Source: Fervidobacterium sp. (GTDB lineage: Bacteria; Thermotogota; Thermotogae; Thermotogales; Fervidobacteriaceae). Taken from it: DNA of 64,000 nucleotides. This document shows positions 1 to 3,000 of this stretch, piece by piece. Each line of letters begins with the position of its first letter. The first letter of the stretch is position 1. The position numbers are program-made. The stretch spans positions 544,001-608,000 of the forward strand of contig JBMFNR010000001.1 in NCBI GenBank assembly GCA_049970055.1. The letters run 5' to 3'.

Positions 1-3000
1 CAACTCTTTCCTGAGCTTCAAATGTTGAGGCTCCTACATGTGGCGTAGCAACAACGTTAGGAAGCGAGAGGAGCTTTTGTCTTAACTCATCAGTTGGAGG
101 TTCCACTTCGAACACATCCACACCAGCTGCGTAAACTTTACCGCTAACGAGTGCCTCGTATAGAGCTCCTTCGTCAATTATTCCGCCTCTTGCGGCGTTG
201 ATAATAATTACACCATCTTTCATTTTTTCAATTGTTTCCTTGTTGATTAGGTGCTTTGTTTCGGGTGTCAGTGGTACGTGGATAGTTATATAGTCACTTT
301 CCTTGAAAATAGTATTAAGGTCAACAATTTTTACATCTATATCAGTTTCTTTCACAAAAGGATCGTATGCAAGTACTTTCATATCGAAAGCAAGTAATCT
401 TTTTGCTACTTCTCTTCCAATGTTTCCGAAACCAATTATACCTACGGTTCGCTTATAAAGTTCGTGTCCTTCAAGTTCTTTCTTTGTCCATTTACCATTC
501 TTCAAATCGTTTGTGCCTCTGGCGATGTGTCGTGAACAGGCAATCATTAGTCCAATGGTAAGCTCTGCTACTGATATACTATTTGCCCCTGGTGTGTTAA
601 TTACCTTGATACCTTTTGCCTCGGCTGCTTTTACGTCGATGTTGTCAAGACCTGTACCCGCCCGACCTATTATTTTGAGTTTTGTGCCGGCTTCAATAAT
701 ATCTGCGGTTACTTTCGTTGCACTTCTTACGATCAAAATCTCTATTTCAGGCATAATTTTTATAAGTTCGTCTTTCTCAAAGTGTTGAGATGTCAGTTGA
801 ACATTTGGTAGACTTGCAAGCTTTTCCGTTGCCTGTTTATCAAGCGGATCATTTACGTGAATTCTCATATTACTTCACCAGCCCTTTGAAGAGTACTTCT
901 TCGGCTGCTTTAACTCCTTTTCCTATTTCGACTTTGTAGCCCAGCTCGTTGAGTGCAAACTCTAAAGCTGCAATACCAGTGATGATATCGAATGGACTTA
1001 CCCAACCAAGATGTGATATTCTAAATAGCTCATCTTTCATAGGTTCTTGACCAGCTGCAATTGTAACACCGTATTTATCTCTCATGATTTTTGTAATCTT
1101 GCTGGCTGGTATTCCTTCAGGCGAAGTCACCGCTGTGAGTACGTTACCTGGTCTTTCTGAGAAGAATGTAAGGCCAAGAGCTTTAATCGCTGCTCTTGTT
1201 GCTTCTCCAAGCAAGGCGTGTCTTGCCCATACATTCTCAATTCCTTCTTCTTTGAGCATTTTAACTGCCTTGTTCAACATGTAAATAAGGTTAACGGCTG
1301 TTGTCCATGGATTATCTGGAGAACTCTTTTTGTATTTTCTTAAGTCGAAATAGTACCTGCTATTCGTACATTTTTCCACCTTTGCGTAAGCTTTGTCGTT
1401 AATAGCAATGAATGCCAATCCTGGAGGCAACATCCAACCTTTTTGTGCTCCCGAGACTACGACATCGATCCCCCACTCGTCCATCTTTAGAGGCTCAGCA
1501 AGCAATCCACTTACTGCATCGGTTACGAGAATAACATCTGTATCTTTTGTCAATTTGGCTATGTTTTCAAGATCAATAACGGTACCAGTAGATGTTTCGC
1601 TGTATGTTGTGAAAACTACCTTAGCATCCGGATTTTCTTTCATTGCTTTTTCTATCATCTCTGGTGTTACCGCTTTACCCCATGGAAGTTTGATTTCAAT
1701 TGGAACGATGTTGTAAGCCTTTGCTATTTCAACCCATCTCTCACCAAATTTACCAGCATTAACAATAATTGCTTTCTCACCCGGATTGACAAGATTAACC
1801 ATAGCTGTCTCAAGGGCTCCAGTTCCGGAAGCGGTAAGAACGTATACTGGATGTTGTGTTTGAAAGACGTATTTTGTTAGCTCAAGTGTTTCTTCTAATA
1901 TCTTTACGAACTGTGGAGTCCTATGATGGATGGTGTCCTTTGCACCTTCAAGTAGTATCTCTTGCGGTACAGGTGTTGGACCAGGTGCCAATAAAAGGTT
2001 CTTCTTAATCATCTTTCTAACCTCCTTTTGATTAGTAAAATCTTTAGAATTCAATTGATGATACATCACTACAATAAAATCATTAAAACGTGAATGTTGT
2101 CAATCCGACTTAACCGCAAATTTTTCATTTTGTTGTGAAAGTTTACCATTTTTCTTTCTTAAACTGTTTGTTTGGCATGATAGGTGAATAATAAACAAGT
2201 ATTTTAAACTTCATGTCAGTAATTTGTGTAAATATTACATATTGCACAAGATTGCATGCAAATATTTGCAATATATTAACACATAAGTTGTATTATAAAA
2301 CATTTACAAAACATGCATTATACGTAATTTTATTGGCAGTTATAATAGAATGGCATATATTTGCTAAAATACCTGTGGTGAAAAACATTTCTACGAAAGC
2401 TTACACGGGGAGTGATTAAGAATGGATTTGGAAAGCAAGAGTTCGGAAGTTGGCAAGAACCTACGTTCATCACTCATAAGAGAACTTCTCAAGTACGCAT
2501 CTGTACCAGGTTCTATTTCGTTTGGTGGTGGGGTACCAGATCCGGAGACTTTCCCAAGGCATGAACTTGCACAGATAGCAAAAGAAGTTATAGAAAACGA
2601 GTATAAATACACTCTTCAGTACAATACAACAGAGGGCGATGATGAGTTAGCTAAGCAGATGATAAAACTTCTTGAGCGAATATACGGAATTACATGTCTT
2701 GGAAGAGAAAACTTGCTCTTCACCACAGGTTCGCAGCAAGCGCTTGACTTAGTCGCGAGAATATTTTTGGATAAAGAGAGTATCTGCATAGTTGAATTCC
2801 CAGTTTACTTAGGAGCCGCAAGCGCGTTTAGAACTTTTTCACCCAGATTCGAACCGATTCCACTGGAAGACGACGGAATGGATGTCAATGTTCTTGAAAG
2901 AAAACTGAAAGAATTGGATGAAAAAGGTTTAATTAGTAAGGTTAAATTCATTTACACAGTTCCAAACTTCCACAATCCTGCTGGAGTTACTATGAGTTTT

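Follow-up and report, generated by a model that had tools for sequence, protein, structure and literature searches.

A putative class of sigma-54 promoters with nine-base spacing in a clade of Thermotogota

All sigma-54 promoters are described as having a strict spacing requirement in the accessible part of PMC5505868, and excerpts of two further studies assign the reading of the -12 and -24 elements to the ELH-HTH and the RpoN domains, respectively (PMC10083551, PMC7057263). The consensus is given as TGGCAC-N5-7-TTGCT in another excerpt, which does not mention Thermotogota (PMC12316311). For this phylum, the available sections state that some Thermotogae have sigma-54, natural promoter variation being described as single substitutions (PMC3162934), and name a sigma-54 gene of Kosmotoga, there without promoters (PMC5674127). 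Sigma-54/promoter pairs departing from the canonical one have been built through the RpoN box (R456H/Y/L), and in the available text on these orthogonal pairs the sequence of the spacer was varied and not its length (PMC12096077). In Bacillus, the activator BkdR, which has two PAS domains, is portrayed in the available part of PMC4428206 as the basis of sigma-54-driven control of a ptb-led operon for isoleucine and valine degradation. In the openly licensed literature searched we found reports neither of sigma-54 promoters with nine-base spacing nor of any sigma-54 promoters from Thermotogota, and the type of promoter analyzed here is apparently unreported.

The window, by which we mean the whole stretch of 64,000 nucleotides that was analyzed, covers C1:544001-608000 of a Fervidobacterium genome. 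An initial annotation had placed a sigma-54 promoter near its start; the positions within the window were correct, but an offset of 512000 was wrong. The features around the site, in window positions, are as follows:

2243..2270, no strand assigned: activator box (putative enhancer), tandem palindrome TGCA-N6-TGCATGCA-N6-TGCA, the sole exact match in the genome
2351..2365, plus strand: sigma-54-type promoter, TGGCA-N5-TTGCT, top nine-base match of the matrix scan, with nine bases in 58 orthologous loci
2362..2370, plus strand: TG-C-TAAAAT, an extended -10 look-alike for sigma-70 that overlaps the promoter, with TAnnnT after the -12 box
2422..3657, plus strand: class I/II aminotransferase, first operon gene (open reading frame; PF00155)
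3659..4744, plus strand: acetate/butyrate kinase family gene, buk 1 (open reading frame; PF00871)
4719..5618, plus strand: phosphate acetyl/butyryl transferase, ptb, start codon uncertain (open reading frame; PF01515)
5618..6733, plus strand: acetate/butyrate kinase family gene, buk 2, start codon uncertain (open reading frame; PF00871)
6749..7414, plus strand: P-loop-like protein of 221 aa (open reading frame; ParA/CbiA matches below threshold only)
7432..7662, plus strand: 4Fe-4S dicluster ferredoxin, probably the oxidoreductase delta subunit (PF12838)
7676..10028, plus strand: 2-oxoacid:ferredoxin oxidoreductase, alpha 7676-8734, beta 8740-9492 and gamma 9489-10028 (open reading frames; PF01855/PF17147, PF02775 and PF01558)

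The sequence at 2351-2365, TGGCATATATTTGCT (TGGCA-TATAT-TTGCT), contains a -24 box of the form TGGCA(C/T) and a -12 box of the form TTGC(A/T). The GG occupies 2352-2353 and the GC 2363-2364, which leaves nine bases between them, as had been annotated, and not the ten of the canonical pattern. The site is intergenic and lies 57-58 bases upstream of the aminotransferase ATG at 2422. Using a matrix built from 40 nine-base sites of other families, with the family of the window genome (f1) left out, the site ranks first among the nine-base matches of the genome (18.3 bits). Ten-base matches inside genes reach 21.7 bits with the same matrix approach. The earlier statement that the site is the only intergenic match has to be narrowed: if GA is permitted at -12, a second intergenic nine-base match appears at C1:399120, although it lies outside the top 30 of the matrix scan. 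The score alone does not single out the window site. As the annotation had also cautioned, such patterns arise by chance: a loose nine-base pattern occurs in 123 of 151 genomes and a loose ten-base pattern in 130, and we rejected genome-wide pattern counts as a discriminator for this reason. The case for the promoter rests on its position and its conservation.

The activator box begins 108 bp upstream of the TGGCA, within the ~80-150 bp typical of a box of this kind, and is a putative binding site. With at most one mismatch it is found in 59 of the 151 genomes of the phylum, mostly as a single copy and before the same aminotransferase operon, and its distance from the promoter is 79-116 bp across the nine-base loci that have it. 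The genome encodes one GAFTGA activator (C1:465740-467431, minus strand, 563 aa, PAS-PAS-AAA-HTH) and one sigma-54 (rpoN at C2:3675-4559, 294 aa), the latter being the sole PF04552 match, in agreement with the annotation of this gene as the cognate factor. We infer that the PAS activator binds the box and senses an amino or keto acid, and that it would remodel the sigma-54 holoenzyme at the nine-base site, so that a putative operon for branched-chain amino acid fermentation is transcribed, in the manner of BkdR in Bacillus. With the canonical GG-N10-GC system this locus shares the TGGCAY and TTGCW boxes, the upstream box, the GAFTGA activator, and a sigma-54 with region I, ELH-HTH and RpoN box; it differs in having nine instead of ten bases, across a clade and several operons, and related sites differ further in the base after the G of the -12 element, GA replacing GC in 16 of the 17 f2 sites. 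With the BkdR/SigL-controlled bkd operon of Bacillus it has in common the two-PAS activator, the sigma-54 promoter, ptb within the operon and, presumably, a role in breaking down isoleucine and valine (PMC4428206, available part). The bkd promoter of Bacillus thuringiensis has ten-base spacing and an activator gene that adjoins its target (same source and part), whereas here the activator gene lies ~80 kb from the operon, both on C1, and the operon includes a ferredoxin oxidoreductase and an aminotransferase; the likeness of the activators is one of PAS architecture. Unlike in the engineered R456H/Y/L pairs, the change seen here is natural and one of length.

Nearly the whole phylum retains the operon (aminotransferase in 143 and ptb in 149 of the 151 genomes), which permits a comparison of one and the same promoter between families. 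We compared 115 upstream regions, taken from 146 aminotransferase matches listed, and found nine-base spacing in 58, ten-base spacing in 17 and neither in 40; related genomes are not independent, and these locus counts are not a statistical test. Nine bases were found in 15 of 15 f1 loci with rpoN, 17 of 17 in f2, 2 of 2 in f3 g10, 21 of 24 in f9 and 3 of 3 in f11, and ten bases in f4 (1/1), f5 (2/2 orthologous copies), f6 (1/1) and f8 (13/13), where 9 of the 17 ten-base sites were recognized visually with a less strict pattern. Among the 40 loci with neither spacing, 26 belong to genomes without an rpoN match, 12 to rpoN-bearing genomes (three of f9 g31 and nine of f10), and 2 are second paralogues in f5. 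One f2 genome (G095) has an additional ten-base-like match beside its nine-base site. In sigma-54 promoters generally, the boxes extend to TGGCA(C/T) and TTGC(A/T). The positions left free in our search follow the consensus of such promoters, with a pyrimidine after TGGCA in 58 of 58 sites, a purine next in 54 and a T after GC or GA in 56. A chance match or a sequencing error could be considered, given that both patterns occur in most genomes; this explanation, to which we give practically no weight, is refuted by the recurrence of the spacing at one location in 58 independent assemblies, of which several consist of a single contig. Judged by this conservation, the nine-base promoter class is real and lineage-wide. 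The initial annotation had reported the site before the orthologous gene in the rpoN-bearing genomes of the family, which now stands at 15 of 15 with 0 of 8 in g3/g4, and it had noted one genome with the site and no rpoN match; by PF04552 and a clade profile there are now four such genomes, G106 (81% complete), G132 (86%), G150 (82%) and G044 (98%, in 270 contigs).

The g3/g4 genomes offer a natural loss experiment. They gave no rpoN match by PF04552 or by a profile of 31 clade sequences, and they retain the activator with an altered GAFTGA motif in 8 of 8 cases; the motif is intact in the activators of G000, G131, G132, G133, G001 and G003. The nine-base site is gone from g3/g4, and in its stead a sigma-70-type promoter, TTTACT-17-TA(C/T)A(C/A)T, ends exactly 30 bp upstream of the box in all 8 loci. 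The nine-base site is absent from 26 loci whose genomes gave no rpoN match. As the site, rpoN and the sigma-54-contacting GAFTGA loop are lost together, the nine-base site is tied to sigma-54. Furthermore, this arrangement suggests that the g3/g4 activator turned into a repressor after the loss of sigma-54, a side result in which one and the same operon shows the apparent conversion.

This joint loss also bears on the chief alternative for the site itself, namely that the main promoter is an extended -10 element of sigma-70 (sigma-A), TG-n-TAnnnT, with TGGCA as a relic or as the site of another factor. TAnnnT follows TG-n in 13 of 15 f1 and 9 of 17 f2 sites, the C-to-A change of f2 falls on the free n, and a TATAAT is present in the window at 2341-2346. 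The element is missing, on the other hand, from all 21 sites of f9, all 3 of f11 and both of f3, and it is seen at canonical ten-base sites as well (6 of 13 in f8), where it may represent an AT-rich melting region. Moreover, the distance of TGGCA is constant across 58 loci, the element disappears along with rpoN and GAFTGA, and the activator box lies upstream in an enhancer-like manner. We consider a sigma-A main promoter very improbable, while in f1 the site may still give rise to an additional, weak start by sigma-A. That the window site is a working sigma-54 promoter is the reading that we prefer, with a probability of about 0.82 from sequence comparison.

The sigma-54 of the window genome has the features that define the family, a DNA-binding domain with HTH and RpoN box (PF04552, 88.4 bits) and a core-binding domain (PF04963, 37.9 bits, covering only positions 5-71 of 185), and is matched by PDB sequences and folds, among them a sigma-54 chain of 8F1K (Z 13.8, rmsd 5.7, 184 aligned). 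Its nearest named relative is from Fervidobacterium (65%). Counted from alignments, the distance from the SR of the HTH to the RR of the RpoN box is 60 aa, compared with 71 in enterobacterial chains and 67 in Aquifex (5UI5), so the linker deletion that had been annotated is real. In the nine-base lineages all 40 sequences have a distance of 60-62 aa, and 60 aa is the value of named records from Fervidobacterium, Pseudothermotoga, Mesotoga and Kosmotogaceae, among others; the 20 sequences of ten-base lineages have 66, 67, 67 and 71 (17 times). The distance was measurable in 139 of the best 150 library representatives, with values of 60-63 in 12 and of 65-75 in the remaining 127 (mode 71). The proposed co-variation of spacing and linker length across Thermotogota is borne out, the 58 nine-base sites belonging to lineages with 60-62 aa and the 17 ten-base sites to lineages with 66-71 aa.

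In the simplest proposal, the shorter linker by itself explains the shorter promoter, in that ~11 fewer residues bring the -24 domain one base nearer to the -12 domain, and any sigma-54 with a short linker would read nine bases. The split within Thermotogota is complete (40/40 against 20/20), and the constancy of the distance, 60 in most of the clade, suggests a constraint. But the 40 nine-base sigma-54 sequences fall into one clade (support 0.973) of a FastTree phylogeny with an outside sequence as root, which makes the correlation a single event, and canonical distances already range over 65-75. Beyond Thermotogota, a single rpoN with 61 aa, with the same 23 residues from FF to SD, and a single activator are present in each of five Armatimonadota genomes, and in 5 of 5 a ten-base promoter precedes an orthologous sigma-70-type gene. 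Across the class, ten bases were found in 17 and nine in none of 31 loci, sigma-54 being known for 5 of these 31 genomes. The Kiritimatiellia genome G213 (61 aa, one rpoN) has ten-base sites before a ClpB-like and an Hsp70 gene, the second judged by eye, and 0 of 5 nine-base matches there is promoter-like; together with two Oscillospiraceae (64 aa), which also show promoter-like ten-base sites, none of 10 nine-base matches is. Therefore, the annotated explanation holds as a co-variation within Thermotogota and fails in its simple form in two outside tests; linker length as a general ruler is contradicted by these promoter sequences, and we regard it as improbable. These outside factors resemble the nine-base clade in their 61 aa distance, RRTVNKY box and single copy, and differ from it in their ten-base sites, a Q at position 185 and their separate tree branches; those of Armatimonadota also keep the full loop before SD.

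Several single determinants were ruled out. Total linker length goes with ten bases at 61 aa outside Thermotogota, and the 3-residue deletion before SD by itself is contradicted by G001, which lacks the loop and yet has ten-base spacing. The initial annotation had linked the compact sigma-54 to the short spacing; the nine-base factors of f9 mostly have 383-398 aa (a few open frames are longer) and the ten-base factors of G001 and G003 402 aa, and small size was discarded. The RR(T)(V/I)N(K/N)Y box, said to mark all nine-base sigma-54, is not universal among them (G131 has RRTVCKY), and RRT(V/I)NKY is also present in ten-base users of f5 and Armatimonadota, which rules it out as a determinant. 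Position 185, in contrast, is N in 40 of 40 nine-base and 0 of 29 ten-base sigma-54 sequences, which have Q or E, and the turn after FF is G, N or D at position 238 in the same 40 of 40 and 0 of 29. In the best 150 library representatives, residue 185 is Q in 135, E in 4 and N in 11, the N rows being the 11 top matches. Clade-specific in our sample are N185, the FF-[G/N/D] turn and both loop deletions together, which are candidate determinants of the spacing. As there is a single clade, any clade-specific residue correlates with the nine-base spacing, whether or not it is causal.

To cover promoters other than that of the operon, we took every match of matched patterns without selection. In the f9 genomes G040-G048, 4 of 15 nine-base matches are promoter-like (5 by eye) and 0 of 16 ten-base matches among those listed, whereas in the f8 genomes G024-G026 the values are 12 of 18 for ten and 0 of 6 for nine bases. 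Four of five more hand-picked nine-base matches are promoter-like, and ketoacyl-synthase genes are preceded by ten-base sites in f6/f8 and by a nine-base site in one f10 genome. Because unrelated promoters switch in the same way in f9/f10 as compared with f6/f8, the shift, as read from these matches, spans the regulon and not one site. This is also relevant to the possibility that the sigma-54 of the clade is relaxed and accepts nine or ten bases, the former being fixed by descent, or that the change lies in the core polymerase. The single origin of the nine-base factors is compatible with it, and the RpoN domain is described as anchored to the polymerase via the core-binding domain (PMC5505868, available part), a domain that is much shortened in f1/f2; with a tolerant factor, however, some ten-base sites should have persisted or arisen, and the unrelated f9/f10 promoters with nine bases and the f9 ten-base matches listed speak against this. 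We think that this possibility is unlikely, though less so than the linker as a ruler.

As a separate observation, sigma-54 promoters next to activator genes are rare in the sampled genomes: in flanks of up to 5 kb around other activator genes, nine-base sites were found in 3 of 19 short-linker and ten-base sites in 2 of 20 long-linker loci, and a ten-base site is present at such a locus of G070, a genome without an rpoN match.

We assume that the spacer lost one base and that the sigma-54 of one Thermotogota clade was altered, so that nine bases are now normal. In B-DNA each base pair contributes ~3.4 A of rise and ~34 degrees of rotation. A spacer shorter by one base means that the recognition helices must be closer and rotated, and this could be achieved by an RpoN domain re-docked on the ELH-HTH domain, which would bring the helices ~1 bp (~3.4 A, 34 degrees) closer; we would give this junction model roughly even odds. 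Linker length alone being insufficient, several changes specific to the clade probably combine to produce the shift, namely the loss of 8 residues after FF and of 3 before SD, the G/N/D turn after FF and a Q-to-N change at the end of the long helix. A stronger proposal, that the clade sigma-54 reads nine-base and rejects ten-base promoters and that the switch consists of a few transferable junction residues (N185, the FF-G turn and both loop deletions), is tentative, and we rate it below an even chance. If it were true, nature would have supplied a sigma-54/promoter pair that is orthogonal to every canonical pair and reveals what sets the -24/-12 spacing. The sister lineages with ten bases at the same promoter, in combination with the short-linker ten-base lineages outside the phylum, make this question testable by a few swaps, and a thermostable, naturally orthogonal pair may result. 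A large branch of mostly heat-loving bacteria apparently has sigma-54 start signals one base under a supposedly fixed spacing, and fixed-width matrix scans, which assume ten bases, would miss the regulons of this clade.

Predicted structures of the window sigma-54 (pLDDT 85.7) and of the C-terminal part of an Armatimonadota sigma-54 (pLDDT 88.7) were fitted to known chains; as the models are of unequal length and free of DNA, we do not count these fits as evidence. The window model fits less closely than the Armatimonadota model to the polymerase-bound chains of 9MSH (5.8 A over 157 against 3.6 A over 172 residues) and to 8REB (5.6 A over 153 against 3.4 A over 158), and with 5UI5 the order is reversed (4.6 A over 149 against 6.8 A over 179).

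In the eight g3/g4 genomes that lack rpoN, the regulation of the aminotransferase-buk-ptb-buk-oxidoreductase operon appears to have been inverted. Their PAS activator carries a degraded GAFTGA motif in 8/8 cases (activators L216-L219 and L495-L498), the upstream palindrome that is its predicted DNA box is retained in all eight operon promoters (L048-L055), and a sigma-70-type promoter, which ends 30 bases 5' of this box, is present in each of them. The combination of a kept box, a degraded GAFTGA motif and a preceding sigma-70-type promoter suggests that the former activator has apparently turned into a repressor in these genera.

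As judged by eye, a sigma-70-like promoter precedes the operon in family f10, also in rpoN-bearing genomes, and the activator box is altered to TGAA/TTCA-type palindromes (L141-L149, L151 for both). In f2, the -12 box reads TTGA and not TTGC in 16 of 17 genomes (L106-L110, L112-L115, L156-L162), which is a further departure from the sigma-54 consensus besides the spacing; no protein change corresponding to this TTGA box was identified. Genome G048 (L091) contains two identical N9 sites (9 bases between the -24 GG and the -12 GC) upstream of the operon, 134 bases apart, which probably reflect a local duplication.

In the Fervidobacterium genome itself (G000), three further features stand out:

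Window 870-2069, - strand: class V aminotransferase gene
C1:399120-399133 (not in the window): N9-like match, the second intergenic one, GA at -12, low score with the matrix trained on N9 sites from other families
C2:2661-6035: rpoN region (L001)

The class V aminotransferase gene points away from the operon, and the activator box lies in the intergenic stretch between them. The second N9-like match lies within a probable ABC transporter operon. The end of an Indigoidine_A-family gene overlaps with rpoN, and a phosphoesterase-like gene (named by eye) follows and likewise overlaps rpoN; the encoded sigma-54 has a scant region II, and its core-binding domain is limited to the initial portion.

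In several Thermotogota families, sigma-54 appears to control genes of fatty-acid synthesis, namely those for ketoacyl synthases (L425, L470, L467, L453, L199). An N10 site (10-base spacing) with GA at -12 is located near an activator gene in the f10 genome G070 (L195), which is 99% complete and gave no rpoN match.

Two further library sigma-54 representatives, P0043 and P0086, have short distances between the HTH 'SR' and the RpoN-box 'RR' (61 and 63 aa) without N185, the Q-to-N residue specific to the N9 clade. The junction is also very short in sigma-54 of Armatimonadota, where a canonical N10 sigma-54 promoter precedes a sigma-70-type gene (L381-L411), which adjoins an FHIPEP-family gene in the two loci checked; this arrangement suggests a cascade from sigma-54 to an alternative sigma factor. 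In Kiritimatiellia G213, N10 sites precede ClpB-like and Hsp70 genes (L491, L494, L487), and therefore these chaperones may be under sigma-54 control.
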